Assembly (NCBI GenBank): GCA_004431415.1
Contig: QPMI01000601.1
Span: 124,001 to 188,000 of the forward strand
DNA length: 64,000 nucleotides
Direction of reading: 5' to 3'
Origin: Cyanophora paradoxa CCMP329
Taxonomy: Eukaryota; Plantae; Glaucophyta
This document shows, piece by piece, positions 3,874 to 64,000 of the stretch. Within the stretch, counting starts at the first letter, position 1. Every line of letters begins with the position of its first letter. The position numbers were made by a program, and so were the translations under genes. A model generated the notes under the pieces. That model was not told the DNA's origin. It did not search any database and worked only from the letters and a program-made list of their open reading frames with translations.

Positions 3874-4019
3874 GAGTACTAGCTATAGTCAGAAAGCGAA
3901 TCGCGATCGTCCGAAAACCTTGATCTCGCGAAAGACGGATCCGTATGAGCCGCCCTAATCGTTCGCATCTCTCGCAGTGAGCGGAGCCGGAATGCCGATA
4001 GGAAATTGATGTAAACATA

Positions 4020-5800: not shown

Positions 5801-6169
5801 CGGGAAGGGTGCTGTTGTTGGATGCACGATCGCGAGGACCTGAGTATATAGCTAAGTATACGAACATGCCGAGCAAGAGAACATGCACATGTATGAATCT
5901 ACCGCGGAGACAGACCTTGCAATTGTGTAGGTTCAGGACTTGAATTTCTCTCGTCGGGAAACTGCGCGTACTTAAGCTTCACATGCACAGAAGACGGAAG
6001 ATCATTTTATGTGAGTTCGAAAGCCTGAAACATACCTGAAAAGTGTTGGTACCGGTGCGGGACTCGGGGAACCCGTCCTGTCCGTTACAAAGTCATGCAA
6101 TCAATCATATGCATATGAAAAACGAGTTATCTGCAGTCGTCTGAGATTTACAGCGCGAAACATATATAC

Positions 6170-8397: not shown

Positions 8398-10844
8398 CAT
8401 CCGCCGCGCCGCCCCCCAGTCTCCACCGGCGGCACCCTCCCTACCCTCGACTCCCCACCATCCTCCCCAACCATCCAGCCCTCCCGCGCTCCCCAACTGT
8501 GCTTGAGTCTCCCCCGCCCGCCCCGAAGGGCCCGCCACCCCCCCCTCCCGGCGCCCGCTATGCCCAAGAACTCGCCTCTCAGCTCGCCGACCTGGCTCGC
8601 AACGAAGCCTCCGCCACAGCGCGCCGTCTCTTCCGGCCGTCCACGTTACCCCACTCGAAGCGGCGTCCATCCTAACTGAAGCCGCTCACCGTGAAGCCAC
8701 CCTGCCGCAACCACGGTCCGCCAAAACATCCAAAACAGCCGCACAGAAAGAGCGGCCCGCACCCGGCTAAGAATCGTATCCCGAACCCAGCCTACACCCC
8801 TGACAACCGCCACAATGACGCCGTTGACAAGCTTGCTAAAACAGCCCCGACGCCCCCTCTCCGCCCTTCTTTTCATTCCCCACAGTTTCAAATGCTTCCT
8901 CATCCGTGTTGGCCTCCCGCCCCACTATCCCACGGCCCAGTCCCCGGGGCCGAGCCCTACCGAGGCAGACTCCATGCGTACCGCGTCGAGGGGGACCCCC
9001 GCTCTCACTTCCTAGCCGAAGCCTCCCTCTCCCAATACCTCGACTGGCGCCAGCTTCGCAACGCGGGGGCCGTCCTCAGCAACCCCCATGTTACCCTTGC
9101 TCCAGCCCTCTCCCTAGTGTCCGACAAGCCACCGGACCGCCGCACCCCCACAGGCGACACCTCCGCAAAGTCAGATTCCAATGCATGCTTGGAAGCCTTC
9201 CCTCCCTCACCATCCGCCTTCTCCACGACCCGACCTCTACGGCCCTCTCTTCCCCGACGGCACCGCCCACTGCCCCTTCTGTCACCTCCCTCCCACCCTG
9301 CCCCATCCCCGAAGATGCTGCTTCCCCACCCTCCCCCTCCCCGCCCCTGCCACATGCACCCCCCGGGCTCCCCTCGCCTCTTCCCACCGGCGGCCGCAGA
9401 CCCCAGACCGCCCGACCCACAACCCACCCCCCCGAAGACTTCGTCCACATATTTACTTGCCCCGCCGCTCGCCTCCTTCTCCAAGCTCTCCAGGACGCAC
9501 TCGTGACCTTCCTCCGTACCCGGGTTCTCCGCCACTCGCCCAAACCACTAGGACACGACGATACCATCTTTCAACTCTTCCCCTTCCTCCGCCTCGTTTC
9601 TCCTGACCCCGCCTCTCCCCTCCAATCCGCCCTCCTCTCCCCCACCGAAAACCCGGCCCTTTTCCGCCCCCCAGGTCTCACCGATACCCTATGGACAAAG
9701 CTTAGCCCGGCCTTGGCTGACATGCTCCCCTTCCCCGCCCCTGCCCTCCTGCGCCTCGGCACCCCGGCAGGATTGCCCGCCCTCTGCACAGCTCTGGGCA
9801 TCAACAAAACCACCACAATGTCAATCCAAAAAGACCTAGCGTTGCTCCTCGACCAACACCTCCGTGCGATCTGGAGAGACCGCTGCGCCCGCAACCATGC
9901 CTGGGAGCTCCGACACGGCATCAATGACAGAACCAAACGTCGGTACCGCAAACATGCAGACTCCAAACCCTCCCGCTCGCCTCTAGTGCAGCCGCCCAGT
10001 CCCCCCCTCCCCCCGCCCTCCCCCCGCCCCTCCCTCCATGATACCATCTCCATCACCGACTTCTGCTGCGAATTGGGCTCGGAAGGCCAACCATGGATTC
10101 TCTTGGAAAACTTCCGCCAAGCAATTGCACGACTCCCCGTCGCCCCCTCACCCCAGGCCCCCCCTCCCCCAGCTGCCCGATGCAGGACCCGCCGCCGGGA
10201 CGTCTGACTTCTCCTGCACCTGCGGCACTCGGTTCGCCTCTGCATCTGCCCTCCAGGCCACTCCGACGCCAGACGGGGAAAATGCCCCGCCCGCCCTGAG
10301 ATCACCTCCTGCCCTGCCTCCCCACCTGCGGTACCCCCAGCACGACAGTCACACGAGAACTCCGACACTGGCATCCTGCCCGCTTCGCCCGCGGTCCTAC
10401 GAACACTACCCAACCTTCCAAACGCCCCGCTCCGGGCCCCCCTGGCCCTCCCCGAAACGAACACGCCCGTCGCCTGCCTCACGTAAACGGACAGCCGATA
10501 CCCCCTCCGCCCCGGCACCCAAATGCCCGCGCCCCGCGACCCCTCCCCTCCCGCCCCTACACCCGCCCCGCCCGTACCTACGGCGAAAAGAAAGGCAACC
10601 GGCCGCAAGACTCCCAGGCGCATGACCAAAAAAGCGCGAACGGTGCCGATACCCACGGGGCAACCCACAATCACGTCCCTCTTTGCACCCGGAGTGTACA
10701 AACCACTTACGACGCTGCAAGCAGCCAACTCCCCCTCCCCCCCCTTGCTTCAGCTGTCCCCCCCGCTCGGGACCTCGCAAGACGCCGCCCCTCAGCCCCC
10801 TACGGTCTCCCCGGCCCCAACCGGCCCTCAAGTGCCAGACCCCC

Positions 10845-10985
10845 CGCTGGCTCTGGCCACCCCTATGGCTTCGGCCCCCCCAATGGCCTCGGCCCCCCTT
10901 TGGCTTCGGCCACCCATCGGCTTCGGCCACCCCCTGGCTTCGGCCAACCCCATGGCTTCGGCCACCCCCTGGCCTCGGCCCCCCC
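10845..10985 (+). repeat. Minisatellite, ~18-bp unit (TGGCTTCGGCCACCCC-like), about 7 copies
   Basis: Visible tandem units tggcttcggcc/tggcctcggcc. Confidence 0.8.
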
Positions 10986-11562
10986 TCTCACCCGGTCGAC
11001 CCTCCCGACCCCTCGCGGCCCGCCTCGTCTCCGCACTCCAGCTCTCTGCGCCGCCTGCCAATGCCCACGCTCACTCCACACTGCTGTCCCGGCACCTCTC
11101 CCTGCCTTGCCCGCATCCGCTGCCCGCCCAAGCTGCTGCCTCCGCCCACTCCCTCTCCTTCCTCATATCTTCCTCCTACCACCTTCTTCACCTCGACAAA
11201 ACGGGACACCGATTAATCGGGGTCCTGGGGCGCAGGTGAGGAGGAGGGAGGAGGCGGAGTGGGGAGGAGGAGGCGTGGCGAGCGGCGGCAAGGAGGGCGG
11301 CGGACTGCGAGACATTTCACTTCCAGGGCTCATGAGGGATGGAGGAGTTGATCAAGGGGTGGGCGCGTGGGTCTGGTTACGGCTATCACCGAAAACCATG
11401 GCTCCCCCACTCAGGCGAACCTCCCATATTGAGCGACCCATGGCCGGCACCTAGCTAGCACCCTCGGCTAGATAGATGACCGGTCGGAAGGGCACGTCAC
11501 GTAGAACATTGATACATGTGCCGTGGTGTATCAATGCGACGTCCACTTTTGCAAAAAAAAAA

Positions 11563-47879: not shown

Positions 47880-49071
47880 GCCGCGCGACGCGCCCCCGGG
47901 ACCACACTCGCCAGCCCCCTCCTCGTCTGCTGCAGCTGCTGGCCGCCGGCGTCGGCTCGCTGCTCGGCGCTCAGTTGCCGGCGGCGGCGCGGCGGCTGTG
48001 GGGGAGACGAGCGCACCAGCAGTGGTCCAGCACTATATTACTGCGGCCGCAGTGCGGCGCCAGCTGCCTCTGACTCACCACCGGTACGGCGGTACGCCGG
48101 TACCGCGGCCGCGCGGGCGTGCGACGCACGCGGCACGCCGACGCTTAAGCTTTGATCGACGTGATGAACCGTGAACGCCGGCGCAAGCTATACTCCCTCC
48201 ATCACGCGGCTTCGCGCGCCGGCTGATGAGCACGGCTCATCATGATCATGCTCATCATGATATCGATCAAGATCTAGATTCTAGAGCCGCTGAGCGCACT
48301 TGTGCCACGGTGAATCGTCGGTGATCATGATCGTGAAGCAGCTAGCGCGCGCGCTAGCTAGCGCTGGCTACTAGTGGCCGCGGCTAGCGCGCGGAGCGCC
48401 GCCGCTGCGCCGGAGGCCCGGAGCTCGAGCCCGGCGGCCTAGCGCTAGCGCTAGCGTCGACGTCGACGTCGACGTCGACGTCGACGCCCCCGCGGCCTAG
48501 GGTGGAACTTTTTTTGGGAGAGGGTACAGTAGTGCTGCCGGTTCGACGAAAATATAATCTGTCGGTTCGGTGACCTCTAGATCTGCATATGCTGACTCCG
48601 TGAGTGACGTCGACGTCGACGGCGATGGCGACATGCGCATGCGCATGCGCATGCAGGCTGATGCAGCATGCAGCATGCTCGATCGAGGGATCCGGATTCC
48701 GCGGAGACTCGAAGTGTCCGCTTCAAATTCGAGATCTAGAGGTGCACGTACGTGACGAATCACTGACGATGGGGCCACAGAATTATTGATAGATCGATAT
48801 CGAGCTTTATATATATATAACTTGTGCGTTTGCATGCGCAATATTGATATCACATTTAATAAATTAAGCTCTCTCAATTATATATAAACGCTATATAGCG
48901 CTAGCGCTATAAATTGGATATTAAATTAAGTTTTAAGGATCTCTATTGCACAAGAATTCGCGTGTTCACTGCATGATTGTGCGCACGACGCCGCACGTGC
49001 ATGCAACGGTGCAAGTTTTGCTTTTTCGTTTCTCCTGACAAAAACACTGCAAAGAAATAGTGGACCAGTGG

Positions 49072-49591
49072 CAGTGATGGAATTAATAATAAACCCCAAA
49101 AAGGGACTTTATAAGAATGATTATTAATAGTTAATAATTAGTTATTAGTAGATTAATAAATACTTCCTCATAGAAGCGCGAAACCACGCGTTGAAGGAGC
49201 GCTGCGGCACGTTTCTGGTGCTAAACACTCTTATATAAGCTGCTTTAGCATTGCGAGTGCCCTCTATATCTGTTGGGGATCGAATAAAAGGGTTAAAGTG
49301 CGACCAAGGGGGTACTGGATGGTCTGAGCTGCCGTCTGATCAGCTTATGAGCGTCATATCAAGCTGCAGAAGTGCCCAGAAGGTCTCTAGACGTGCATAG
49401 AACTGCTTTATATCGCTCTAGCATGCACAGATTCGTCATAGAGTGCAAGAAATGGTGTATCTATGGGTACCCCCCTAAACTAATAAACGTTATTAATAAG
49501 AATGGCGGTTCTGGGACCTTATTAATAACGTATTATTAATTAGTTATTAATTAGCTAATAAAAAAGGTTATGAATAAAGTTCCCATCACTG
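49072..49591. mobile_element. hAT-type MITE (520 bp)
   Basis: TIRs CAGTGATGG(G)AA...TTCCCATCACTG. 8-bp TSD ACCAGTGG at 49064-49071 and 49592-49599. Subterminal TTATTAATA repeats. Confidence 0.85.
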
Positions 49592-49614
49592 ACCAGTGGA
49601 CCAATTAGCTATTG

Positions 49615-50037
49615 TTTTTTGGTGAATTACCGGCCAGCTGCAGTGGGCCGTGGGCCGTGGCCCGTGGGCCGTGGCCACAGTCTCTACTACGACTCTCTAG
49701 ACACCAGCAGGTCCAGCACTGCGGGGGCTGCCCAAGGGGCATAAAGACAAAAAAGCAAAATAACTAAGACAATAGAGCACGAAGAAAGACAAGACAAAGA
49801 GCCAAAATCGACAATAAAAAAGAAAAGACACAGAGACAGATCGAGAAGCCTTTTTTTTGGTGAATTACCGGCCACCGTGGCACAGCCTCTAGTCTACTCC
49901 AGCACTTTGATTCCAGGCTTTGAAGAGACGACTCGGCGATATATCATATATAAGCGAACCAGTCCGAGCAAATCTAGTGAGAGAGGATGACAGACAGGAA
50001 GAAGAGCTAGCTTTAGCTAAATAGAGCTAGAGATCTA
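49615..50037 (-). mobile_element. Two decayed 3' ends of a poly(A)-tailed retroelement family (tails at ~49615 and ~49851)
   Basis: Poly-T followed by GGTGAATTACCGGCCA twice. The same 3' end is found undegraded at 51555-51612. Confidence 0.65.
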
Positions 50038-50275
50038 GATACGATTAGGGCTGGGTCCAGTGAGATCAGTGGAGGGTCGAGGGTCTCACTCCACTCACTG
50101 AGTGAGGATTTTGGCTCACTCGTACAAAGCAAAATGTATGGGGCGAGTGAGCCGGACCTCAGCCCGCGCCGCGCGGGGGGGTATCTGGCGCCATAAAATC
50201 ACGACCCAGGCGCCCCACCTAACGATTTGGGGGTACTTTTGAGTCAGATCTACATGCATATGCGTGTAGCGTAGC

Positions 50276-50563
50276 ACATGACATATGCGCATTACACCCA
50301 AATTTTAGCGCCTTTTATTTACGACATTCAGTAACAACTTTACGATTCCCGACAATCGGAAAATATCACCACCCAATAAACCCATTTAATCGAGAGATTC
50401 CCGATGAAACCTACAACAATCGAGAGATTCCCGACAATTCACCATCGGACAATCGATGAAATACCCATTTAATCGATTGAATCCATAAAAAACAACAACC
50501 ACTAAACCATTCACAGTTACACCCGTTACACTTCCACATCTCCGATTGATTCACATTACACCC
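50276..50563 (+). repeat. Left terminal inverted repeat of PLV (288 bp)
   Basis: Base-by-base reverse complement of 62841-63128. Starts ACATGACATATGCG. Internal AATCGAGAGATTCCCGA repeats. Confidence 0.97.
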
Positions 50564-50564
50564 A

Positions 50565-50888
50565 TCACATTCGCATAAATTGCATCCAAGTAGCAGGATT
50601 AGCAATACTTACGTCTGATTCGGAAGACATACCTTTTTGGTAATTATAACAGAATTCACAAAGTAGTCCCTGAGACATTGGTTTGAGTTTTTCAGTATCT
50701 CCACAAATCATACAACAGTTTCGGGTTCCCATTCGTTCATACATAGCATTTGCTTTTGCCTGTTGTGAATGTGTTAATTTCAATTCGCCGACGTTTTCAT
50801 TTACCATAGAAACAACCGGACGTCCACTTTTAGCGCCGACGTATTCAGTCATATTACGATGTCGTTCACTTGCTTTTCTCTTACCCAT
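50565..50888 (-). CDS. Small PLV protein with CxxC..CxxC zinc finger (107 aa)
   Basis: CCMICGD...LCEFCY. Upstream CAAAATTTGAC motif on the minus strand. Confidence 0.75.
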   Translation of the reverse strand: MGKRKASERHRNMTEYVGAKSGRPVVSMVNENVGELKLTHSQQAKANAMYERMGTRNCCMICGDTEKLKPMSQGLLCEFCYNYQKGMSSESDVSIANPATWMQFMRM

Positions 50889-50942
50889 CGTTATTACTAC
50901 TTCTCAGATTCCTTTTAAACTTTGTCAAATTTTGCCCCGATG

Positions 50943-50954
50943 CAAAAAATGACG
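50943..50954 (+). promoter_or_regulatory. Putative viral early promoter motif CAAAAAATGACG (also at 51498, 57100, 57616; variant at 50924-50934 on minus strand)
   Basis: The motif lies 26-92 nt upstream of each non-structural gene, usually followed by an ACTTAAA box. Confidence 0.65.
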
Positions 50955-50994
50955 CTTTAAAACTTAAAACTTTACAACGATACACTTGTAATCA

Positions 50995-51507
50995 ATGGCG
51001 ACCAAACGAACCGCGGACATTCTGTGTTATAACATGGACTTCTTACCTAATTCAAATAGTGTTTACGCTGATTTTTTCGGAGATAATCTAACTGATGAAT
51101 CTATTTCGATTATATTTGGTGTATACAAGTGTTTGCATCAATTCCAAGGTGTAACATCAGATATGCTACACAAATGCTTCCTTACCAATAGACTCGATGA
51201 ATTGATTCATAAAAGAAATAAAAATAATCCATCGGGCTATTTCAAGAAGTTGAAAGAAAAAGGAATTATTATAGGAAAAACTTGTTTTTCAGAGCAGCAA
51301 GACATACCTAAATTCGAAATACTTGATGACAGTTATTGTATTAATTGTGGGCATGCAGATTATCTAACAGAAAATCACCCACGATTCACAGCGCCACCTG
51401 ATTGTTATGTTTGTTGTGAATTTCTTTGTAAAAAGTGCGCATACTACGACAAACAAAAGTATTCATTCGTGCATTTCAAATGTAGCCCAAAAATGGGCAA
51501 AAAATGA
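50995..51507 (+). CDS. PLV protein with C-terminal Cys-rich zinc finger (170 aa)
   Basis: CINCGH...CYVCCEFLCKKC...HFKC. Confidence 0.75.
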   Translation: MATKRTADILCYNMDFLPNSNSVYADFFGDNLTDESISIIFGVYKCLHQFQGVTSDMLHKCFLTNRLDELIHKRNKNNPSGYFKKLKEKGIIIGKTCFSEQQDIPKFEILDDSYCINCGHADYLTENHPRFTAPPDCYVCCEFLCKKCAYYDKQKYSFVHFKCSPKMGKK

Positions 51508-51535
51508 TGTCCCAAAAAAATAACAATTAAAAACA

Positions 51536-52011
51536 ATGGATTACTACGGAGTTTTTTTTTTTTTTTTTTTGGTGAATTACCGGCCACAGTCTCTAGACAC
51601 CAGCACTGCGGGGTTTACATGTTGGATATTGAAAATCCGGAATTACATAAAGATCTTCTCGAAAACAACGGGGCTGAATGGGATCCGGACACAAAATTAT
51701 GGTTTGTCGAAGACGAAAATAACGAACTTTTAAAACAATTCCGTGTAAAACATCCGGGTGAATTCGACCAAGATTACGTTAAACAATTCCACCGCCAGTA
51801 TTTCGTGGCTGATATCAAAGCAAGACTACCGGAGATTGCGGCAAAGCGTATATTTACTCAGTCATCATTACGCAAATATATTAAAAAACAAGGCGCTACA
51901 TACGATCCTCAGTATCGTTTATGGTATGTTACTGATCCTGAAAGTGAGATATGCAAGATCTTTAAGATGTTCACACTCGAACAGGTAGAAGATCTGAGAA
52001 GACCAAATTAA
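51536..52011 (+). CDS. Tandem DUF5710-like protein; original start 51536 frameshifted by a retro-insert, in-frame ATG at 51619 retains 130 aa
   Basis: Two GAxWDPxxKLW(F/Y)V-type repeats (GAEWDPDTKLWFV, GATYDPQYRLWYV). Removing the 62-bp insert gives MDYYGVY-MLDIENPEL. Confidence 0.75.
51555..51612 (-). mobile_element. Extremely 5'-truncated poly(A)-tailed retro-insertion
   Basis: Poly-T plus GGTGAATTACCGGCCACAGTCTCTAGACACCAGCACTGCGGG, flanked by GTTT duplication (51551-54, 51613-16). Homologous to host copies at 49621 and 49859. Confidence 0.8.
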
Positions 52012-52760
52012 ACCGTAATCGTCGTGGGTTCATTACTAATTCTTATCGATTCTCTCTTTTTTATCGCTCGTCTCTTAACAAACTTGCGAAACGCTTTCAT
52101 GTCATCATCTGTTATTATTGCACGGTCTGTGTATACTTTGATGTCATAACCTTGTAACCCAGTTATAACGGTCTGATAATTGTAACCCCAAAGTCTATGT
52201 AGTTCTTTGTAAGTCTTCTTGTCCAATCCACCGTTATATTCATCGAATGCACAGTTAAACTCTTTCTCATTTCCTAAAATGTTAAAGAATACCACAAATT
52301 CCACATTACGACGAATGGTAGTAGAAATAGAACATATACGTTGGACATTGAAAATAACGGTTATACCATAATGTCTTCCGCTCGTTACCAGTTTGGATAA
52401 CACAGCCGAATTATGCATATCCAAATTAGAACCTATCATGTCATCTAAAATTATTACCAAACTATTACGCTTCTCATTGTTTTCGATTCGTTTCTTTTGC
52501 ATACTAATTAGTTTCACTACCACATTATCATCCCATTCCTCATAGATGTTACCAGGATGCGTTATATCTTTGAATTGACCGGTAAACGCAGTGGAACTAA
52601 ATACTACAATCTGATCGATCTTATCGCGCAGTTCATAAAGTAGATATTTACAATACGTTGTCTTACCAGAATTGGAGCGCCCGGCAAGCAAAAAACGCGA
52701 AGGTAATTTAGCAGTTTTAACCGGGTCGAATTCGGGAATATCATTTAAATCTATATCCAT
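52008..52760 (-). CDS. A32-like (FtsK/HerA) genome packaging ATPase
   Basis: Walker A GRSNSGKT, Walker B LVIILDD, GRHYGITVIFNVQ (arginine finger/Q motif), IRRN. Confidence 0.93.
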   Translation of the reverse strand: MDIDLNDIPEFDPVKTAKLPSRFLLAGRSNSGKTTYCKYLLYELRDKIDQIVVFSSTAFTGQFKDITHPGNIYEEWDDNVVVKLISMQKKRIENNEKRNSLVIILDDMIGSNLDMHNSAVLSKLVTSGRHYGITVIFNVQRICSISTTIRRNVEFVVFFNILGNEKEFNCAFDEYNGGLDKKTYKELHRLWGYNYQTVITGLQGYDIKVYTDRAIITDDDMKAFRKFVKRRAIKKRESIRISNEPTTITV

Positions 52761-52888
52761 TACTGTGTGTCCGTTACAGTAATAAGATAAAAAACAAAAT
52801 CATGCGCTAACCTATACGCAATTTGCAGGCTTCCTACTTTAAAGAAAGAAAAAAGAATCGTCAGACAAGCCGACTCGGCGGCGCCCTT

Positions 52889-55109
52889 TTAAAAGTTGGA
52901 AACTTTCAGTGTCGAAATGTTATAGCCATTGAGAACCATGACATTGTGACGGAGCGCGTAAATATCCACCTGAACCGGCGCCTCATCGGTGCAACCAGAA
53001 ACTACAAGATCCATGTAAGAACTTGAAGAATTGAAGAAGTCTTGATAACCCATGACCGAATTATGGAGAGAATCCTTACCGCTCTTGCTTAGGACAACAC
53101 CATAAACACATCCATCCTCAAAACCAAGATCAGAATTGCCCACAGTGCATCCCTTGTAGTGAGACGGGATATGGTTTACAGCAGACAGGAAACCGCCAAT
53201 AGGTTTGTTTGAGATTTCAAGCGATCGGTTGTTATGGAAAATTTGGAACTGTTCAATTTTCACATTGGAATAGTAACCAGAAAGAGTCGAATGTGTGTAT
53301 TTATCAAGCTCATTGGTTTCACGAACAGTCATAAGAATTGAATGAACCAGACCGGAAACACTCGCAAGTGTAACCTCGACATTTTGCCCATCATCCGCCG
53401 CTTTAAGCGCTCGGGTCTTCTTGTGGATCACTTCCGTAATCGGGATGCGAATACCTCCTTGTTCATTCGCCGTCTTTAAGAGGTTCTCAGCTTCCGCAGA
53501 AGCAATATTAACGAATTGACAGATTAGCGCGCAATCACCCATAGTGACATTTCCACCAGCAGGAACCAAAACTACTGAATTCTCCGACGCTCACGGCAGC
53601 TGAACGGCAGGCGCAGATGTGCGTGCTACGGGGGCTGCCCCCGGCGGGCCTCACCGATATGATTCGCGAGACCGTCACGGACGCCAAGAAAGCTGCCCAG
53701 GTCGTGCGCAAGCTGACGACGGCCATAGGCGAGCAGGCCCATAAAACGTGGGCCGCCAGATGCCAGGCGTACGCGGAGTGGGAGAAGGCGTGCGGGATCA
53801 CGAAGGTCATGAAAGAACGTCGCGCCAAGGCGAAGCGCACTGAGGCGCGCGGGCGCGAGGCCGACGCGCCGCCTGACGATACGGCTGGCAACGCTCGCAG
53901 GAAGCGCGCGGATCCGGAGCCCCGGCAGCGGGAACGCTGCAGGGAGTGCGGTGCCCTCGAGTCCCGCCACCAAGGCGGGGAAACCCTAGCCCTCTCACAC
54001 CTGAGCTGCCCGCCAGACGACTACGGCTGGGTCCGGGCTTCAGCGGCCATGCAAGTATACGACCATACGAACAGGTATGCTTGGGGCGTGGGCACACAGA
54101 GGGCGCGCCCGCGCTAGAGGGAGACACTGGGGGATTGCGGTCTGGGGGCGGGGCCGGAGGACGCAACACCAACAAATGGAGGCGGCGGAGGCGACGGCAG
54201 GAGGCGGCCAGTAGCCCAATCTACTGGGGCTGGCGAGGAGCCTGGCACACGGCGCGGCGAGGCCCTTGGGCAGCGCTGGCGGCGGACATACCATGATTGG
54301 GAGTCTTTTGTAGAGATAGGACCTCGTAGCCGGGAGTTTAGGTTGGTTTAGAAATCGATACAGCTAGCTTCCACATCATTAGTATTAGTTAGAAACCTCC
54401 TTAGCTAGATATCTAGACACGAAACCTTCAAACCTTTCGTTCATTTTGTACTTTCTAAAGCACAGCATACGACGGTCCTCGATAGTATCTAGTCGGAGAG
54501 ATTTATTGGGCGATGTGAAACTCATTGTAGTTGTGTTGTGTGCTAATGCAAGAGATTTTCCAAAACTACTGAATTCTCGCGAAAATCTACCTCGATAGTG
54601 GGCATGTCCGCAAGAACGCAAAGGGGGAAATATGCATCATCCCAGAATTGGGCAGGAATCTTAATGATATATTCCGTAGATTCGTCAGTGCTAAGGCGAC
54701 TAATTTCACGGAAATATCCAAGAGAAGCGCGCATAGTAGCCATGGTTGCTGTGTCATTGTCTACCAGAGCATTAACAGTGATCCAATCGCCAGGGATGAT
54801 ATACTTAAACCCACCGTGGACAAAACGAACCTCTTTAATGTAAGAAGCGCCACCATTGGGAAGAGTGCAAGCAACACCACCACCGGTAGTAACCTTAAAG
54901 TAAAGTGAAACGCCACTTAGTAGTTGCTTGCGTGGTAGATCAAAATAAGCGGTCGTTTTGAAACCGAAAGTATTACCACGTGGGCGAACCTGTTCAAGGA
55001 ACGGCTTATATTTGGGGTTGGTTCCGATTTGGAGACCGGGAGATAGATAAATTTGATCCGATCCGGGAGTAACGAGGAGTTCTTTAAGGGTCGTTCCAGT
55101 AAGCGCCAT
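52889..55109 (-). pseudogene. Major capsid protein (double jelly-roll, ~408 aa reconstructed) interrupted by a LINE fragment
   Basis: ORF 55109-54543 and ORF 53569-52889 join in frame (...DFRENSVVL|VPAGGNV...) once the insert and one 19-bp TSD copy are removed. Beta-rich, lies between ATPase and penton, PLV-MCP-like motifs (FDLPR, FPL). Confidence 0.8.
53585..54559 (+). mobile_element. 5'-truncated non-LTR retrotransposon (975 bp) with 19-bp TSD
   Basis: TSD CCAAAACTACTGAATTCTC at 53566-53584 and 54560-54578. GC-rich insert. ORF remnant TWAARC..AEWEKACGIT resembles the C-terminus of the element at 8.3-11.4 kb. Confidence 0.88.
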
Positions 55110-55161
55110 GTCTTATGTTTAAAATACGAAAAGAAATTTTTAAATTACATTATTAAACAGA

Positions 55162-56067
55162 ATGACGCGTTACTATCTTAATATTGATTCCCGGGATCGG
55201 GATGATGGAACCCCTACAAACTATTCTTATAAACTTCCCCATGCAATCCAAAATGTTAAAGCATGCCGTGTTACCAATTTCGAAATGTTTAATAACATTT
55301 ACAATCTCAGCGAAAACGGAGCGCTTGTAACATCCACACTCGATGGACAAGGAGTAACCAAAACGAAAAACAACGTGATTTCGAAAGGGACTTACACAGC
55401 GGATAGTTTGGTGAATTATCTAAATGCTCTTCTGATATCTCAGGTCTACGGTGCAGCAGGGACTACATACACCCGTCATTTCAATGTGTCTTATGATCCA
55501 ATAACAATGAAACTAAGGATTATTGGTGAAGTAGCATTTACCATACGTTTCGGTAGCATGATTTTAGCCAATTTCCTCGGTTTCCCGGATCCATCACTAA
55601 ATGGCTCGGCGGGTGTAGGTTATCCATCTACTCCTCTCGATTCACCACAGCAAGTAGGTGCTTATACTTATAATCACTATCTCGACAGTGTCATACCGCT
55701 CGACCTTCTGTTTAATTCTTACATCCTTCTACATGTCGATCCACTCAAAGGTAATTACGTAAGCAAGAATACCAGCGACGATAAAGCGTTAGCTAAAATT
55801 GAAATTGACCAGACGGTAGGTAGTCTCCTAAAATACGATTCTACCAATAACTCTATGATCATCCATGAGCAAAACGGATTAGTGGAAGTTGAGACGCTTA
55901 AAGTGCGTTTGACGTATTGGAATGGTAACGAAACGGACATTACCACGGATTGGTCAATGACTCTCGAACTGATCACCGAAGATGAAAAGGATCTTACGAA
56001 AGCAGCATTGAAAAACGTTATAAGGGATTTGGAAAATGTCTATTTACCGTTTGGTCGTAATATGTAA
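55162..56067 (+). CDS. Minor capsid protein (penton), 301 aa
   Basis: YLNIDSRDR...NYSYKL...IQNVK...NNIYNL and C-terminal LKVRLT..G....DWSMTLEL are typical of PLV pentons. Confidence 0.85.
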   Translation: MTRYYLNIDSRDRDDGTPTNYSYKLPHAIQNVKACRVTNFEMFNNIYNLSENGALVTSTLDGQGVTKTKNNVISKGTYTADSLVNYLNALLISQVYGAAGTTYTRHFNVSYDPITMKLRIIGEVAFTIRFGSMILANFLGFPDPSLNGSAGVGYPSTPLDSPQQVGAYTYNHYLDSVIPLDLLFNSYILLHVDPLKGNYVSKNTSDDKALAKIEIDQTVGSLLKYDSTNNSMIIHEQNGLVEVETLKVRLTYWNGNETDITTDWSMTLELITEDEKDLTKAALKNVIRDLENVYLPFGRNM

Positions 56068-56099
56068 TTTTGCGTTATATTTTTGTCTTGTTATTTCAA

Positions 56100-56876
56100 A
56101 TGGCTCGTAAGACACAACCCAAGAGCGGCTCGCAAGCGAGCCTTGGCTCGCGCCTTTTCTTAGCGAAACCCGTCGAACAAGCGGAACCGGAACGGAAGCA
56201 TTACAAGAAATCGAAAGGAACCGCAGCATACGGAACCGCTGATATCGAAAAGAATATTAATAATACGATTAATTCCAGTGCTGTGGCGCCAGTAGACGAC
56301 ATTAACGATGGTAACGCCTTAGTTGAGCAAGTGCCGCTAAACCGTATGCCGGGTGCAAAGCGTGGGATTAAGAAAGGACAATTTAAGAGCGCGACAATCG
56401 ATAAGGTCGATAAAAAGTCGACTCTTCTTAAACTCCTCGATGGTGGCGAGCGTCTGTATTCCACATATTCGGAAAAAGACCACCGTAACCGTTACTTTAT
56501 CAGAGCAACTACCGGTGGACTGAAAACGATCACATACAAACACGCTAAAAGTCTCATTGAGGGAATCGCCGATGAGACGCAGAAAGAGAAGAAGATAACG
56601 GAGCAACCGATAACCAAAGAGAAGGTAGACAAGAAACCCGATGTTACGTTTGATGTCCTTCCCGATCCAATCAAAGAGGAGAAACACACACCGACGGAAT
56701 TAATCGCTAAGACGATCGATTACCAAGAATCCAATAAAACGGATTTGCCGGTGTTAAATAAATCAATCTTGCGGGTTGCTACATCGCAATCTGACCCGCT
56801 TAACTCCATTCCCAATGCGGCGCCGATGCTTTCCGGATTCGCTAAATTGGGTCTCCGTCCGGGTTACAGGCGTTAA
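56100..56876 (+). CDS. Lys-rich PLV hypothetical protein (258 aa), possible virion core protein
   Basis: Intact ORF from ATG 56100, directly after the penton gene, basic composition. Confidence 0.7.
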   Translation: MARKTQPKSGSQASLGSRLFLAKPVEQAEPERKHYKKSKGTAAYGTADIEKNINNTINSSAVAPVDDINDGNALVEQVPLNRMPGAKRGIKKGQFKSATIDKVDKKSTLLKLLDGGERLYSTYSEKDHRNRYFIRATTGGLKTITYKHAKSLIEGIADETQKEKKITEQPITKEKVDKKPDVTFDVLPDPIKEEKHTPTELIAKTIDYQESNKTDLPVLNKSILRVATSQSDPLNSIPNAAPMLSGFAKLGLRPGYRR

Positions 56877-57203
56877 GCATCATTCTTACGTTAAAATTTT
56901 CTTTTCAAAGAATAGCGTTAAACATCCATCTCCGAATTTTAGCGCTCACGTTTACTTATTTTTATAAGTGGCGTTGTAGAGAAGTTGTGATATCCATGTA
57001 TCACGCTTTTTAATCACCTGTTCTACGGGGTTCATTCGTAGAATCGAGGAAGCGAAGACTTTCGGCTTATTTTTCCGGCATCTTCTTATTATCGATGCGC
57101 AAAAAATGACGGCGTTTTAAAAAACTGATCGACATGTTATATACACGATAAGAAAAGGACTTAAAGATTTCTTGCTATATATCAGAAGAGGAACAGCAAG
57201 AGA

Positions 57204-57458
57204 ATGCCGCTAAGCGAATCTCAGAAACGCGCGATTTATCGCTACCGCAGCACAGAAAAGGGTATGTTAGCGCTTGCGCGATTCAATGAAAAGCGCAATG
57301 TTAAGTGGAGTGAATTGTATAATAACGATGACGCATTTAGACAGAAACACATAGCAACGTCATGCAAGGCGCAGTATGTAAATAACACGATTCTATACAT
57401 TAAGTATCTATTCGACGTCCCGCGAACTAATCGGGGTCGCCCATCAATTCATTGTTAA
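57204..57458 (+). CDS. Small basic putative DNA-binding protein (84 aa)
   Basis: MPLSESQKRAIYRYR N-terminus of a type common in PLV/virophage small proteins. Preceded by the shared promoter motif. Confidence 0.7.
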   Translation: MPLSESQKRAIYRYRSTEKGMLALARFNEKRNVKWSELYNNDDAFRQKHIATSCKAQYVNNTILYIKYLFDVPRTNRGRPSIHC

Positions 57459-57688
57459 TCCTTTTTTCCCGGCGCGATCGCTGAGGAAGACAGGCGCAAC
57501 CGCGCTTAAAACAATACACTGTTTGAGTTATTTTTAAGACCATCGAATGGTGGTCGACCCTTTTGTTATTTTTATTAAACCCTCAAAGCGGATTTTGTGG
57601 ATTTTGCGGTGTCGCCAAAAAATGACGCAATGTATGAAAAGCACTTAAAGAAATAAAATATAGTGTATATAATAAGAACGCCTATAAG

Positions 57689-60600
57689 ATGTTTTCATTT
57701 GCAACAGTGAAGAATATCATCGGATCTGTGGTAGAGTCCATTAGCAATCTACCCGGTATTCGCAGCATCCCGTTTATCGGTAATGCAATTAAGCGAATCG
57801 CTAATGATCGTTTCGAAAGAGTCGTAAAGGAACTCGAAGCAAGGAAGAGTGAGAAGAAGGAGAAGACTAAGGAGGAAATCCGCGAAGAGCGGAAGAAGCG
57901 CAAGCAGGAGAAGAAGGAGAAGCGCGCACTGAGAACGATTAAGAACATTCAGAAGCAAGAAGGGAAGAAGTTCAAGGGAAAGGTAAGGCGTCTCATTCGT
58001 CGTATTGAAGCAGAAAATGGCGAAACTGTTTCGGTTCATGTAAGATTCTATACACTTCCCGATGATATCGATAATCTACCACAGGGCTATGATGTTATCT
58101 TACACAAAGACACGCCTTACGTTGAGACACAGAAGAGCGGAAAGAGGGCATTAATTATGACTTGCCCGAAAGACGTATTGATTGCAAGACTTACCGAAGT
58201 CGAAGACGAATTTAATAACTTTCTTGCCGTTTGGTCGCTCGATACTATCGCCGCTTTCCTTCTTAATATCGCTGATCGTAACGCAAATAACAGGGATTAC
58301 AATTATGTGCGAATTTTCGCTTACCCACAACTCCGTGAGTCTCCTATTTCATATCCCGATGTTATGACAATTGAGGAAATTGTAGTAAGTGACAATACCA
58401 CTGTATACCCTCTGAATGAAAGAGCGCTTAGAGACGGAGAGGCGCCTAAGATCGTTTCGCGTTTCATCAAATATTCACTTAATGGTGGCGCAAAATCTGT
58501 ATTGGATCAGATTAAACCCGATGGGTCACTTATCATCAAGGATTGCTTAATAGAGGCGCTACATCAGGTCATTGTGAAATCTTTCGAATATGCCCACAGT
58601 ATCAGCAAATACAAGAAGGTTAAGTATTCGAAGGAATGGCTTTATGAGCAGATCAAAGGACACGCGCCTACTGACACATCCGATTGGGGGACGTCCTTTA
58701 ACGAAATACTACCATTCTTGCAAAAGTGGCGCATCCGCTTTATCGCAATCGGAAAAGACGACAAGGTTATACATTCTCTGTGTTACAAACCTACCCGGAC
58801 AAATTCACACCTTGTCCCGGCAAGCGTTTACGTTCAGATCTCTAACGATCACGTGTATGTGTTGAATAAAGACCTTAGTAAACTTGTGCGATCTTTCAAT
58901 GGAACAGCGGCGCGCGAAACAAAAGCGGTGGGTTCATCGTCGTTAAAATACAAGATCAAAACACAGTTTAACGATATCAGCTATCCGGCATACTCTGAGG
59001 AAGAAATAGTGGAGATTGTTAAACGTGAGAAGGAAAACGCAACCTCAAAAATCACGATCACTTACAGTAAACCGTTATTCGAATTGTTGGGAAGTTTCAG
59101 AAGAGCAAACCACGAAGTTAACGCGACTATTTCCGATGAAGGTATAGTTAGCTACATCCATTACAAGATCGAAGACAAAGATGTAGTTATACTACCGCCA
59201 GGCAATATGGTGAATATGGATGATGTCGACGTTAACCTTAGGGATGAAGAACACCGAAAACTCTTTAACGAAATGTCGCAGATGCTAAACCGTGCGCTCA
59301 TTAACAAACATGTTAAGAGCAAATACAACCCGGAGACATTCGCCGCATTCACGAAAGGACAACAGAGCGCATTAAATGGGTTTTTCGTGACTTCTAACGC
59401 TGAATTGCGGGAATTGTTTGAAGGTGTTATGTGTGGCGCGATCGATACGTATAAATTGGATATCTCCAAAGCATACACACATATCGTATCGAAACTCATC
59501 AAAAACTTCCCGGTTTTCAGCTCATTCGATCGATTCGAAAAGGTTGTGGTAACGTGTAGCGATGATATCGAAGCGGACGCCTTCTATTCAGTGAAAGTAA
59601 GAGCGAAACACTTTACGGTAAATCGTAAAGACCAATTGATTAACAACATGTCGCCATACAAACGTATCCTTGTAGACTCAAAATACAACCTTCTGTATGG
59701 TGGCGTGTTGAAAGAGTTCTACGATGACATCCGCGACGACGTGATTATAGAAGCAGTGGTAAGACCATACCGGGTTGTTAAAAACGTCACATTGCAGGCT
59801 TTCAAGCAGTTGTTTGCGTCTAACCTTTCGATCAAGGAAAAGAAGGATATCAGTAATCACAATATCGGGAAGTTTGGTAAGAAATCCCAGCAAAAAGTGC
59901 AAACAACGATATTCTTTAACAAGAACGACGCGCTTAACTTTGTCCGAGAGAACGGCGGTAAACTGAGATCGCTAAATTTCGATTCAAAGAAGCCGAAGCG
60001 GACGACTGTAAGGAATGAGGCAAAGACGGAGACACCGATGTTATGGTATGTAAACCAGCTCGGAGAAGAGAAGACGCTTATAGATGGTTTCCTACCTATC
60101 CAGTGTCAGATTTACAGTATCATGCGTGGGGTCATGTATAAACTGTCTAAGGATCTATTGGCTAATGGTGTTGGAGTTCTACGCATCAGAACCGATGAGT
60201 TTCTTATAGACAAGCCATACCCATTTGAGCCGTTTGACCGCGACCTTTTCGAAAACACCGGAAAGTATGACGTGAAACCGTTTAATGTTACTCCGATTAT
60301 ATCACAGGAGTCAAAGAAGAAGCGGAATAATGCTAATGGGTGGATCACATTCGACAGACTGAGACAACGCGACGAGAGGTTTATTACGGTCGAGAAGGTG
60401 AATCATAAGGTGTTCAAGTTTAAGGATGAATACAACGTGGAAGCCATCGTGAATGCTATGGACGGAAAGGGTAACGTGATTATTCGCGGTGTCAAACCCG
60501 GGACAGGTAAGACCACGTTAGCGAAGGCGATGACACGGAAGTATGGTAAAAACTGTCTTTTCATTGCGCCGACTAACATTCGATGCAAGCAGCTACGCAT

Positions 60601-61786
60601 GGAATTGAAAAAGGAGTGGAGCGAAGTTGACATGGTCGATGTGAAGACTATCTACAAGTCACTACATCTGAATATCGACCCCGAGAAGATGAATGACAAC
60701 GTAGGTAAACAGGTTACCGATTTATCCAAGTATCAATGCTTTGTAATCGATGAGGTTTACCAGTTCCAGATTCGCGAATTGGAGGCGTTGAGAGACATTA
60801 TGACTATCCATTTTCCGGATAAGTTATACATCGTTACGGGTGACCCATTCCAGATTCCACCGATTCAATTTATCGATATCGACCATCGCGACTACTACAA
60901 CAAGATCTTTGACCGGTTGTTTAAGAATGAGGTTTACCTACAAGTCGGAAAGCGACACAAAGACCCCGAAGATCAGGTTAAAATAGATCAATTGAAACAT
61001 GATCTATTCGTTACAAAAATGCGTGTTCCGGAGGCAGCGGCGCGGTTGGGTCTTGCAGTTGTGAATGAAATGGAAAAAGGCGACATTTCCATAGTTCAAT
61101 CTAACCGCAAGTCCGCGCAAGTGAATAATGAAATGCACAGGATGCTTTACGGTGTTGACATGGTTTATAAGGAAGGCGTGCATTTGATTGCAAAGTATCA
61201 AATCACAACAAATGAGGGTATCATTTATCGCGGATTTGAATATGAAGTAATCAAATACGAACCCGAAAAGGTTCTTACGCTAAAAGACATCGACAGCGAA
61301 GAAATCTATAATGCGAAGCCCGAAGACATCAAATATTTCGCATTATCTCATGGTTTCACTTGTTACAGCATTCAGGGCGACACTATCAGAGATAAACGCG
61401 TAGTTGTCTATCAGTCGACCTCGCCATACATGACCGCTGAGAGTTTCTATGTTGCAGTGACGCGAACCGAAAGACTTTCTGACACTGTAATTTTCGTAGA
61501 TGAGGACGAGAGACGGAGAGTTGGTATGGAGAAGGCAGAGTTTGCCGTTAAAATCAGATCACACAAGGCAGAAGACAAGAAGTGTAACCGTGAGTTTGAC
61601 GCAGCAGATTACGTCGATTGGGAATGGAAGGGTTACCGCTTTGGTAAGCAGCATGGACGCTGTGGAAGGTGTGGCGATATTATGGATCCGGAAGATGCAA
61701 CAGTAGACCGTTACAACAACGCAATCGCCCACATTAAGCCGAACTGTTTCTTATCTCATAATAGGTGTAATTGTGCAGCGCAGTAA
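57689..61786 (+). CDS. Replication polyprotein: basic N-terminus, vOTU-like domain, derived protein-primed PolB, SF1 (Pif1/RecD-like) helicase, HNH-like finger (1365 aa)
   Basis: DCLIEAL...NDHVY. LDISKAY / KDISNHNIGKFGK / IRTDE. GTGKT, VIDE, GDPFQIPP, SIQGDT, YVAVTR. CGRCG..TVDR.NN..AH.K.NC..SH.RCN. Confidence 0.88.
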   Translation: MFSFATVKNIIGSVVESISNLPGIRSIPFIGNAIKRIANDRFERVVKELEARKSEKKEKTKEEIREERKKRKQEKKEKRALRTIKNIQKQEGKKFKGKVRRLIRRIEAENGETVSVHVRFYTLPDDIDNLPQGYDVILHKDTPYVETQKSGKRALIMTCPKDVLIARLTEVEDEFNNFLAVWSLDTIAAFLLNIADRNANNRDYNYVRIFAYPQLRESPISYPDVMTIEEIVVSDNTTVYPLNERALRDGEAPKIVSRFIKYSLNGGAKSVLDQIKPDGSLIIKDCLIEALHQVIVKSFEYAHSISKYKKVKYSKEWLYEQIKGHAPTDTSDWGTSFNEILPFLQKWRIRFIAIGKDDKVIHSLCYKPTRTNSHLVPASVYVQISNDHVYVLNKDLSKLVRSFNGTAARETKAVGSSSLKYKIKTQFNDISYPAYSEEEIVEIVKREKENATSKITITYSKPLFELLGSFRRANHEVNATISDEGIVSYIHYKIEDKDVVILPPGNMVNMDDVDVNLRDEEHRKLFNEMSQMLNRALINKHVKSKYNPETFAAFTKGQQSALNGFFVTSNAELRELFEGVMCGAIDTYKLDISKAYTHIVSKLIKNFPVFSSFDRFEKVVVTCSDDIEADAFYSVKVRAKHFTVNRKDQLINNMSPYKRILVDSKYNLLYGGVLKEFYDDIRDDVIIEAVVRPYRVVKNVTLQAFKQLFASNLSIKEKKDISNHNIGKFGKKSQQKVQTTIFFNKNDALNFVRENGGKLRSLNFDSKKPKRTTVRNEAKTETPMLWYVNQLGEEKTLIDGFLPIQCQIYSIMRGVMYKLSKDLLANGVGVLRIRTDEFLIDKPYPFEPFDRDLFENTGKYDVKPFNVTPIISQESKKKRNNANGWITFDRLRQRDERFITVEKVNHKVFKFKDEYNVEAIVNAMDGKGNVIIRGVKPGTGKTTLAKAMTRKYGKNCLFIAPTNIRCKQLRMELKKEWSEVDMVDVKTIYKSLHLNIDPEKMNDNVGKQVTDLSKYQCFVIDEVYQFQIRELEALRDIMTIHFPDKLYIVTGDPFQIPPIQFIDIDHRDYYNKIFDRLFKNEVYLQVGKRHKDPEDQVKIDQLKHDLFVTKMRVPEAAARLGLAVVNEMEKGDISIVQSNRKSAQVNNEMHRMLYGVDMVYKEGVHLIAKYQITTNEGIIYRGFEYEVIKYEPEKVLTLKDIDSEEIYNAKPEDIKYFALSHGFTCYSIQGDTIRDKRVVVYQSTSPYMTAESFYVAVTRTERLSDTVIFVDEDERRRVGMEKAEFAVKIRSHKAEDKKCNREFDAADYVDWEWKGYRFGKQHGRCGRCGDIMDPEDATVDRYNNAIAHIKPNCFLSHNRCNCAAQ

Positions 61787-62853
61787 TGGATAACATATTA
61801 TCTTACAAGAAATACCGCCAGAAGTTGATAAACGATAAAGTGACATTTGATGAAGCAGAATTAAAGAAACGTTTTATAAATTCCGAAGTGCATCAGATAT
61901 TCAAGAAACCAAAGAAACCAAAGACATTTCTAAGAATTGTTGCTATGCCTTATTCCTTTCAGGTGGACATAATGAATTTTAAAGGATATCAAACCGCGAA
62001 TAATGGGATTTACAAGATGATAAGTTTTATTGATATATTGAGTCGGAAGGCTTTTGTGTATCCGTTTAAGAAAAATGAAGAAATCCGTAATATTTTGAAT
62101 AAGTTTAAGGTTGAGGCAGGTAAGGTTAATGGATTGGCGGGAGATCATGAGTTTAGCAGTGCGATGTATAAAGAATGGTGTGATGCTAACGGTGTGAGAT
62201 TATATACAGATGTGGCGAAAGATGACCATGTAACCGTTGGAAATAAGTTAGGAATTATTGACAGATTCACACGGACATTTAAGCAATATTTGAGGAAGGC
62301 GATGACATCAAAGGGAACCACAAAATGGATAGATTTAATAGGTGAAGTTCTTTCGATTTACAATGGTTCACCTCATAGTTCCTTAAAAGATGATTCACCC
62401 AATGCAGTATTTGCAAGTGATCAGAAACAGCTTTTTATACATCTACGTGATGTTGTGCATAACAAGCATGTGCAAGAGAAGGAAAAGAAGGATACAGTAA
62501 AACCGGGTGATACTGTGCGAGTGTTGGAAGGTAAAAAAAGTGCGTTTGAGAAAGAAGGCGCGCGATTCAGTCAGAAGGTCTATAAAGTCGGAAGATCTGA
62601 CGGGAATAGGTTTAAGGTGTTGGAGGATATGGACGGAGACGAGAAGGAGGTAAAGAGGCGCTTTAAGAAGCAAGAGTTACAGAAGGTGAGCGTGAAAGAT
62701 GTAATTAAGATACCGTCGCAAAAACGAATAGAACGAGTAAAAAAGGTAAATGCTGTGAATCAGAAGATGAAGAAGGAAGGGATTAAACCGAATCGAAAAG
62801 TAACCGTGAGGAAGAAGTATAATTTAAGAAGTAGTGCAAAGGGTGTAATGTGA
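61786..62853 (+). CDS. Retroviral-like (rve) integrase with SH3-like C-terminal domain (355 aa from ATG 61786)
   Basis: FQVDIM, FIDILSRKAFVYP, GDHEF, GIIDRFTRTFK, W.DLI......YN..PHSSL..SP, VKPGDTVRV. ATG overlaps the upstream stop (TAATG). Confidence 0.93.
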   Translation: MDNILSYKKYRQKLINDKVTFDEAELKKRFINSEVHQIFKKPKKPKTFLRIVAMPYSFQVDIMNFKGYQTANNGIYKMISFIDILSRKAFVYPFKKNEEIRNILNKFKVEAGKVNGLAGDHEFSSAMYKEWCDANGVRLYTDVAKDDHVTVGNKLGIIDRFTRTFKQYLRKAMTSKGTTKWIDLIGEVLSIYNGSPHSSLKDDSPNAVFASDQKQLFIHLRDVVHNKHVQEKEKKDTVKPGDTVRVLEGKKSAFEKEGARFSQKVYKVGRSDGNRFKVLEDMDGDEKEVKRRFKKQELQKVSVKDVIKIPSQKRIERVKKVNAVNQKMKKEGIKPNRKVTVRKKYNLRSSAKGVM

Positions 62854-63128
62854 ATCAATCGGAGATGTGGAAGTGTAACGGGTGTAACTGTGAATGGTTT
62901 AGTGGTTGTTGTTTTTTATGGATTCAATCGATTAAATGGGTATTTCATCGATTGTCCGATGGTGAATTGTCGGGAATCTCTCGATTGTTGTAGGTTTCAT
63001 CGGGAATCTCTCGATTAAATGGGTTTATTGGGTGGTGATATTTTCCGATTGTCGGGAATCGTAAAGTTGTTACTGAATGTCGTAAATAAAAGGCGCTAAA
63101 ATTTGGGTGTAATGCGCATATGTCATGT
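62841..63128 (-). repeat. Right terminal inverted repeat of PLV (288 bp)
   Basis: Exact reverse complement of 50276-50563. Confidence 0.97.
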
Positions 63129-64000
63129 GTAGCGCTAGCAGCACCGCGCGCGATGCTGACCATGACCAATCTGAAATTCGAAACGACCTCTCAGAGTCTC
63201 GACATTTTAGAAGCCCGCGGAAACAGCTGGCAGTTACGGCGCGTAGCGCCTGAAAACACGGCGAAATCTGGGTCGTTTTAGGTCGTTTTTCGCGTATACG
63301 AAAACGTACCCCCTGCTCACTACAGTGACTGAGTGAGTGGGACGCAAAAAGCTCACTCACAAAGTGAGCCCGCGGACCTCACTGGGCGCAGCCCTAGATA
63401 CGATCAACATCTGACTCAGTGAGGGAATTCGAAGCACATGTCCATCACTAACAAGCGCAGGACAGAACTGATCATGAACAAGATAAATCACAGGAAGCAG
63501 ACAGGTAAGCGGAACAACAAGACGACGTCGACGTGCACGTGGAGGCTGAGGCGAAACTTTTGAAACAGGCCTAGGACGATGCGAATCGAAAGGGCAGAAT
63601 TCGAACTACGGCACGAGCGCGAGGAGGACACAGAAGACGGATCAGGCGGATCAAGAGCAGGCCAGGCCTAGATCAAAGGAATCACTAAAGCCGGTCGGGG
63701 TCGACGTCGAGGCGGGCAGTCACGTTGCACACTGAGTCGAACTGCAAACGACGGCGAACGCGAACGACGTCGACAGGTCGAATACGAGGACTAGCGCTGG
63801 AATGAATTCTATAGCTAGCTATAGCATCAACACGTGCACTACGATCAGAATCCGAACCAGACCGAACTAAACTACAAGACGGAGAACTCGGAACGCCGGC
63901 GCCGGCGTCGGCGGGATACCGTAGTACGACCAGCGAAGCAGAATTCGAAGATGAAGCCAGCTGCAGATCTAGATCATAGGCGGCAGCTCGCGATCGGTAC

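Follow-up and report, generated by a model that had tools for sequence, protein, structure and literature searches.

A probable endogenous Tlr1-type Polinton-like virus with a split capsid gene in the genome of Cyanophora paradoxa

Endogenous Polinton-like viruses (PLVs) have by now been recorded from hundreds of protist genomes, and a further copy is in itself ordinary. Published work is cited here by identifier. The closest described systems, the Tlr1-like elements, are linear with inverted ends and encode a major capsid protein (MCP), a minor capsid protein, an A32 ATPase, an RVE integrase and a polymerase fused to a superfamily 1 (SF1) helicase in a protein of 1,000-1,400 amino acids (aa), and they lack a maturation protease (PMC5499653, PMC11161782). 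The usual size of PLVs is 14-40 kb (PMC12220804). Three groups of small PLVs (Zora/VC102, VC218 and Zephyr; 15-30 kb) carry a capsid module like that of nucleocytoplasmic large DNA viruses (NCLDVs); many Zora and VC218 members have an RVE integrase, some in Zephyr have a polB-SF1 fusion, and relatives exchange their replication modules (10.64898/2026.06.19.733378). Here we analyse 64,000 nucleotides of the glaucophyte Cyanophora paradoxa CCMP329 (contig QPMI01000601.1, positions 124,001 to 188,000; the whole stretch is called the window), in which the AT-rich segment at 50276-63128 is likely an endogenous PLV of the Tlr1 type, integrated by an rve-type enzyme into a miniature inverted-repeat transposable element (MITE) and carrying a capsid gene split by a 994-bp insertion.

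Capsid genes of this family are on record. Adintovirus-like proteins were noted in C. paradoxa by Starrett 2021 (PMC8502044), and Bellas 2023 (PMC10120064) catalogued C. paradoxa capsid genes in its Table S2 and provided automatic maps of five loci; Cyanophora is absent from its main text. Table S4 of that study lists 366 capsid hits for the species in two 'iterative HMM' (hidden Markov model) clusters (272 and 94) outside the named groups, and HHpred of two of the published capsids, gene_49165 and gene_58741, points to an ascovirus capsid at 97% (for gene_49165, an ascovirus MCP at 97.2%, E 1.8e-6). No genome description of these elements was found in the literature searched, although a map of the family or a name for it may exist in the figures or figshare files of Bellas 2023 or in the supplementary material of the 2026 preprint. 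The present analysis describes the gene order, the ends, the type of replicase and a repeated 12-mer.

Boundaries and integration site

The element measures 12,853 bp; subtracting the large insert leaves 11,859 bp, and subtracting a smaller one as well takes off about 60 bp more. Its terminal inverted repeats (TIRs) are exactly 288 bp long with zero mismatches; beyond them 30 of 40 positions differ, and the termini read AC...GT. When target-site duplications (TSDs) of 3-9 bp were tried only a length of 5 fitted, giving GTAGC on both sides, an agreement expected by chance for 0.17% of random pairs of window 5-mers. GC content is 42.3% over the element and 40.8% once the large insert is set aside, compared with 72.7% at window positions 9001-48000. 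Ten open reading frames (ORFs) take up about 87% of the element once both inserts are subtracted. The host genome has a mean GC content of 67.6% and many short introns (PMC6704402), and the window is alike in both respects; together with the capsid match described below, this would by itself point to C. paradoxa or a close relative as the probable host. The original prediction had proposed identical 288-bp TIRs, a GTAGC duplication, an abrupt AT-rich composition and a size of ~11.8 kb without nested inserts, all of which are borne out. Its description of the virus as complete is correct for the ends and fails for the genes, the capsid gene being split after codon 177 of 408.

The flanks are the two halves of a MITE of ~490 bp whose ends read TAGGG and which is itself bordered by an 8-bp duplication; from these features we take it to be of the hAT type. 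Contigs of four DNA runs were aligned to the window, considering 15 of 58 joints and 32 of 5182 pieces; joints with just 20-32 letters on one side (e.g. 59817 to 62651) were excluded. In all four runs contigs contained an empty MITE with a single GTAGC. Aligned with the window, this sequence has 6 differing letters and 9 gap positions and is therefore a paralog rather than the empty allele, so that the empty site sought by the original prediction was recovered in paralogous form only.

Gene content and comparison with known elements

Once the insertion (975 bp plus a 19-bp duplication) is removed, the capsid frame is open for 408 aa. Within the published catalogue (PMC10120064), gene_49165 agrees by eye with 88% of the 5' part and continues past the site of the insertion with no change in length, and gene_58741 (413 aa) is collinear by eye with both parts. 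The capsid halves had no match in Pfam or in the other libraries searched; by Atlas features the 3' half scored 0.96-0.97 to Capsid_NCLDV and V20 C-terminal clusters, with low recognition value. Because the insertion splits the main capsid gene, this copy likely cannot build particles alone.

The insert itself contains a 166-aa ORF at 53617-54117 (+) with no family match and has no poly(A) tail, and its long contigs stand at 23-30x flank depth. We class it as a young, unclassified repeat family, likely a truncated retroelement to judge from the long duplication. A second, small insert with a poly(T) tail shows no clear target duplication around it. Both may postdate integration or may have come in with the donor copy.

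The replicase carries an SF1 helicase at residues ~920-1260 (AAA_19, E 1.6e-7; Viral_helicase1, E 5.5e-7; UvrD_C_2; an SF1 helicase match at E 1.3e-6 in another Pfam scan), with motifs spanning 938-1259, followed by an HNH-like C-terminal tail (1325-1361; PHROG endonuclease VII, E 0.03 at 1296-1363). By eye, polymerase motifs A, B and C are found at 591, 719 and 834, motif C reading RTD instead of DTD, and vOTU-like Cys and His motifs at 284 and 386 (Cys 286, His 388). Read against the layout in PMC11161782, these motifs suggest that the protein probably carries a vOTU domain and a pPolB palm upstream of the helicase. The palm of Tlr1-like helicases was called inactive in 2016 (PMC5499653) and predicted to be active in 2024 despite the lost first Asp (PMC11161782). 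PF03175 (DNA_pol_B_2) gave no match at E up to 10 in four slices of the N-terminal 890 residues, and an AlphaFold2 single-sequence model of residues 241-890 had a pLDDT (predicted local distance difference test score) of 31.5.

The ATPase has Walker A, Walker B and GRH motifs at residues 27, 103 and 128. Matches of the integrase are weak (Pfam rve, E 0.025; PDB integrase chain 2x6n, E 0.044), with a likely triad of D61, D120 and D159; its RecA matches were rejected as arising from tandem fusion constructs. For the penton ORF the sole PDB match is 6ncl P1, which we take to be the penton of the chlorovirus PBCV-1; it is weak (E 0.037) and covers N- and C-terminal stretches with a gap between them. 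Atlas features scored 0.98 to viral clusters with low recognition, and the AlphaFold2 single-sequence model had a pLDDT of 31.4. None of the 12 ORFs scanned against Pfam and PHROGs matched a maturation protease family, though a very divergent one is possible in a small ORF.

These results modify the original prediction in part. The five genes it had named (ATPase, MCP, penton, pPolB-helicase and rve integrase) are all present as intron-free ORFs; the ATPase and SF1 helicase labels are firm, the rve and penton labels are weak and the polymerase part is recognised by motifs only. Its pPolB-helicase can be refined to a Tlr1-like pPolB-SF1 helicase fusion. The predicted lack of an adenain/Ulp1-type protease agrees with our scans, and given the probable internal vOTU protease it is only the capsid maturation protease that is absent. 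The view of the locus as a compact, protease-less PLV whose capsid is divergent and whose insertion was due to an rve enzyme agrees with these results.

Compared with the Tlr1-like elements of PMC5499653 and PMC11161782, the presumed gene set and the domain order as read from motifs are equal, down to the HNH domain at the C-terminus, as in PLVs, and to the loss of the first Asp in motif C. The element combines an A32 ATPase, no recognisable maturation protease, a large SF1 helicase-nuclease protein, an RVE integrase (weak matches, Asp as third residue), TIRs and a duplication within the 5-6 bp of this type. Tetrahymena Tlr1 has a GIY-YIG tail whereas the tail here is HNH-like, and the likeness is one of layout. 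The apparently NCLDV-like capsid module, the RVE integrase and the probable polB-SF1 fusion recall the Zora, VC218 and Zephyr PLVs (10.64898/2026.06.19.733378), which at 15-30 kb are larger than the ~11.8 kb here, as are PLVs of usual size (PMC12220804). Mriya48, HUH, methyltransferase and Tlr6F genes did not turn up in the element, and no search was aimed at them. The sequence hints at an affinity to the Nucleocytoviricota-related side, because HHpred of the capsids points to ascovirus and iridovirus capsids and the only match of the penton is a chlorovirus protein.

The Tetraselmis PLVs (10.1101/2025.10.09.676808) and the endogenous mavirus-like elements (EMALEs) of Cafeteria are likewise integrated, many per genome, with nested retroelements and with a conserved structural and a variable replication module. 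The Tetraselmis elements are 18-19 kb long against ~11.8 kb here, and both groups were shown to reactivate with a giant virus, whereas the present element is known from DNA alone. EMALEs also differ in carrying the protease.

The 12-mer CAAAAAATGACG has three copies, all intergenic: one lies 41 bases before ORF170, one 93 bases before ORF84 and one 62 bases before the replicase, and it is missing ahead of the ATPase, capsid, penton and ORF258. It is the sole non-homopolymer 12-mer with three copies in the element; any such triple arose in 3 of 2000 shuffles of the intergenic sequence and in 11 of 500 shuffles of the whole element. An early motif of chloroviruses, AATGACA, located at -60 to -90 (PMC5294985), has six bases in common with it (AATGAC) and differs at the next. 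We regard CAAAAAATGACG as a candidate early promoter.

Table 1. Features of the element and its integration site (window coordinates)
Feature	Coordinates	Strand	Basis or remark
MITE target duplication, left copy (GATACGAT)	50038-50045	.	identical 8-mer at 63397-63404
MITE left half, TAGGG end	50046-50270	.	MITE ends agree at 17/19 bases
TSD left, GTAGC	50271-50275	.	single copy in empty paralog
Left TIR	50276-50563	.	begins ACATG
ORF107, two CxxC pairs, possible Zn-ribbon protein	50565-50888	-	no Pfam family
12-mer CAAAAAATGACG, copy 1	50943-50954	+	before ORF170
ORF170, Cys-rich C-terminus (12 Cys, three CxxC), possible zinc finger	50995-51507	+	Pfam FYVE_2 E 0.068 only
~60-bp poly(T)-tailed host-repeat piece, intergenic ORF170/ORF130	51552-51613	-	matches 49612-49636, 49851-49878, 49694-49709; ends approximate
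ORF130, two DUF5710 stretches	51619-52011	+	Pfam PF18974 E 7.6e-9
A32-like genome packaging ATPase, 250 aa	52008-52760	-	Pfam Pox_A32 E 3.4e-14
MCP gene, 3' part	52889-53584	-	Atlas features; collinear by eye with published capsids
975-bp host repeat in capsid gene, 61% GC	53585-54559	+	19-bp duplication 53566-53584 / 54560-54578; high-depth contigs
MCP gene, 5' part	54560-55109	-	155/177 residues identical by eye to gene_49165 (PMC10120064 Table S2)
Probable penton (minor capsid protein), 301 aa	55162-56067	+	PDB 6ncl P1; Atlas
ORF258, K/R-rich (46/258), no family; possible virion or DNA-binding protein	56100-56876	+	sequence composition
12-mer, copy 2	57100-57111	+	before ORF84
ORF84, small basic protein	57204-57458	+	no significant Pfam family
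12-mer, copy 3	57616-57627	+	before replicase
Tlr1-like replicase, 1365 aa	57689-61786	+	Pfam helicase, PHROG nuclease, motif reading
rve-type integrase, 355 aa	61786-62853	+	Pfam, PDB, motif reading; final 13 bp within right TIR
Right TIR	62841-63128	.	sequence comparison
TSD right, GTAGC	63129-63133	.	sequence comparison
MITE right half	63134-63396	.	joined to left half in paralogous contig
MITE target duplication, right copy	63397-63404	.	matches left 8-mer

Siblings, relatives and surroundings

A capsid gene without the insert was present in three of the four runs, with 15 other letters at the joint, the length for one copy of the 19-mer. A second sibling type, found in 4/4 runs, omits 50956-52009. 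One sibling subfamily has another inner repeat edge (50499-50535) and lacks ORF107, ORF170 and ORF130 in the window's form (50565-52009). Depth at the ATPase site 52395 was 5930, 3835, 3303 and 9936 in the four runs, compared with 233, 129, 115 and 374 at the replicase site 58559; the ratio is ~25-30 in every run, depth not being equal to copy number and AT-rich DNA possibly being over-sequenced. Contigs matching the left arm and the replicase start exactly had 1.9-4.1x the depth of the flank contig 48500-48935, which was assumed to be single-copy. These values hint that near-identical copies are few and that relatives with the same capsid module are far more numerous. The siblings that the original prediction had suspected in this genome are thus present, as a diverged insert-free capsid gene and as near-identical copies of other parts.

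Together with the limit on reading depth, several results weigh against the interpretation of the locus as a functional Tlr1-type virus family. Because its 15 joint letters differ from the window, the uninterrupted capsid contig is, on its sequence, a diverged sibling and no proof of an identical intact copy. The polymerase/vOTU region had no Pfam or phage tblastn match, and the integrase, with weak matches only, has Asp as its third acidic residue where Glu is usual. Four IMG/VR scans and two metagenome scans returned 0 loci, and since no free relative was found there is no sign of particles. Among 5.8 billion proteins the ATPase had one relative at 31% identity (1 of 276 candidates), the 3' part of the capsid none among longer proteins (0 of 1122 candidates) and replicase residues 500-1365 none (0 of 7808). 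A match of the capsid 3' part to a 1915-aa repeat protein in a 1.84-billion library was rejected as compositional. An exact protein look-up matched none of eight window proteins.

Other parts of the window also contain repeats. Positions 1-1326 are AT-rich as well, at 32% GC over the first kb. This block holds a direct repeat of 181 bp (331-511, 623-803), a 94-bp near-palindrome, a perfect 28-bp inverted repeat (1044-1071, 1299-1326) and a terminal ATGTGT like the TGT end of the virus. It lacks any long ORF, blastn gave no match between it and the TIR of the element, and it may be one end of a further virus-like element or else a MITE. Beside the MITE, 48500-50045 is AT-rich and repeat-rich, with contig depth at 49534-50050 reaching ~300x that of the flank contig and two further copies of the poly(T)-GGTGAATTACCGGCC piece; we read it as a nest of host mobile elements. 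A C-rich stretch lies at 8676-11500, where the frames resemble the C-terminal zinc-binding end of a long interspersed nuclear element (LINE) reverse transcriptase. By reading, a segment of several hundred bp to 1 kb is apparently duplicated within 4000-8100 (~4800-5800, ~7050-8100).

Age, life cycle and alternatives

Identity of the TIRs bounds their divergence at ~1% (rule of three, 288 sites). The five core genes have no stop apart from the insert, and the observed/expected CpG ratio of the element is 1.34, in a host that methylates 32% of CpG and most repeats and carries giant-virus endogenous elements (PMC12344493). Because the TIRs are identical, the core genes open and CpG undepleted despite host methylation, and because exact-match contigs stand at 1.9-4.1x flank depth, the integration is probably young. 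The original prediction had reached the same view from zero TIR divergence.

We propose the following cycle. The element's own rve integrase would insert the linear genome into the MITE and in doing so create the 5-bp duplication. The shared 12-mer would act as early promoter of the replicase and of two small genes, and the replicase, with a terminal-protein region, vOTU protease, exonuclease-less palm and SF1 helicase, would start from the identical ends to copy the linear form. Packaging of the genome into a double jelly-roll capsid with penton would fall to the A32 ATPase, and its reinsertion to the integrase. This copy could supply everything except the capsid, which would come in trans from an intact sibling; copying within the genome would need no capsid. 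By analogy with described systems, the family most likely alternates between a silent methylated provirus and particles. Tetraselmis PLVs are induced by a giant virus (10.1101/2025.10.09.676808), and by analogy with these and the Cafeteria elements giant-virus induction would be the likelier trigger, at what we consider roughly even chances.

A variant of this reading, which we hold as tentative, is an autonomous virus that replicates in the nucleus with host RNA polymerase II and needs no giant-virus helper. Chloroviruses use the host polymerase, and the promoter likeness fits host transcription too. The 12-mer holds AATGAC, recalling chlorovirus AATGACA (PMC5294985), but the match extends over only six bases before the next one differs. 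The element encodes its own replicase, and PLVs of the TsV type include nuclear lytic viruses (10.64898/2026.06.19.733378); other Tetraselmis PLVs, however, depend on helpers (10.64898/2026.06.19.733378, 10.1101/2025.10.09.676808).

It seems doubtful that the family no longer forms particles and persists only as a self-synthesizing transposon, with capsid genes as recent baggage. While the scans of viral and metagenome contigs without a free relative would fit such a history, glaucophyte habitats may be absent from sequence collections. The broken capsid gene is tolerated here, yet no other break interrupts the frames of capsid, penton and ATPase, and uninterrupted siblings exist. The 366 capsid hits in one genome, and one published sibling capsid of just 312 aa (PMC10120064), also suit a transposon, whereas 41% GC amid 73% fits recent entry or extrachromosomal replication.

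A virophage of the Mavirus type (EMALE-like) or a canonical Maverick-Polinton is very improbable. The replicase is fused to an SF1 helicase and is not a canonical pPolB with exonuclease; no ORF matched a maturation protease, including the cysteine protease of Maverick-Polintons (Pfam, PHROGs); and a virophage-type MCP with such a protease was not found, in line with the zeros for C. paradoxa in all later columns of Table S4, virophage, Mavirus and Maverick included (PMC10120064). These points outweigh the shared rve integrase, TIRs, 5-bp duplication and nested retroelements, the AT-rich composition of an insertion within the GC-rich genome of a protist, and the one Atlas cluster hit in 30 that has the Sputnik V20 C-terminal family (42% of members). 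That the locus is an assembly chimera or a contaminant contig joined to host DNA is scarcely credible: no contig crossed a virus-host junction among the 32 of 5182 pieces, but the 5-bp duplication is exact and backed by the empty paralog, the two MITE halves have their own 8-bp duplication, host repeats are nested within the element, and 14 of 24 listed runs, all of this one organism (2012-2024) and one of them possibly the source of the window, contain 77-79% of sampled window words.

Looking forward, the probable endogenous Tlr1-type PLV described here provides a map with both ends defined for a family otherwise on record, in the literature searched, as capsid hits only, and to which almost nothing is similar in the metagenomic collections searched. 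Its triple nesting (a retro-type insert in a virus in a MITE) orders events in time. We consider it a speculative, rather unlikely proposition that these elements form a glaucophyte-specific minimal lineage (~11.8 kb) that combines a giant-virus-like capsid module with a Tlr1-type replicase and a chlorovirus-like early promoter and forms an active helper network within one genome. If so, a shared capsid module (25-30x replicase depth) would serve subfamilies with swapped or missing replication arms as well as capsid-dead copies. Because the likely host is an axenic laboratory alga that has a published methylome and carries relics of giant viruses, induction experiments are within reach; if the proposition is true, intact copies could be inducible into particles in the axenic alga.

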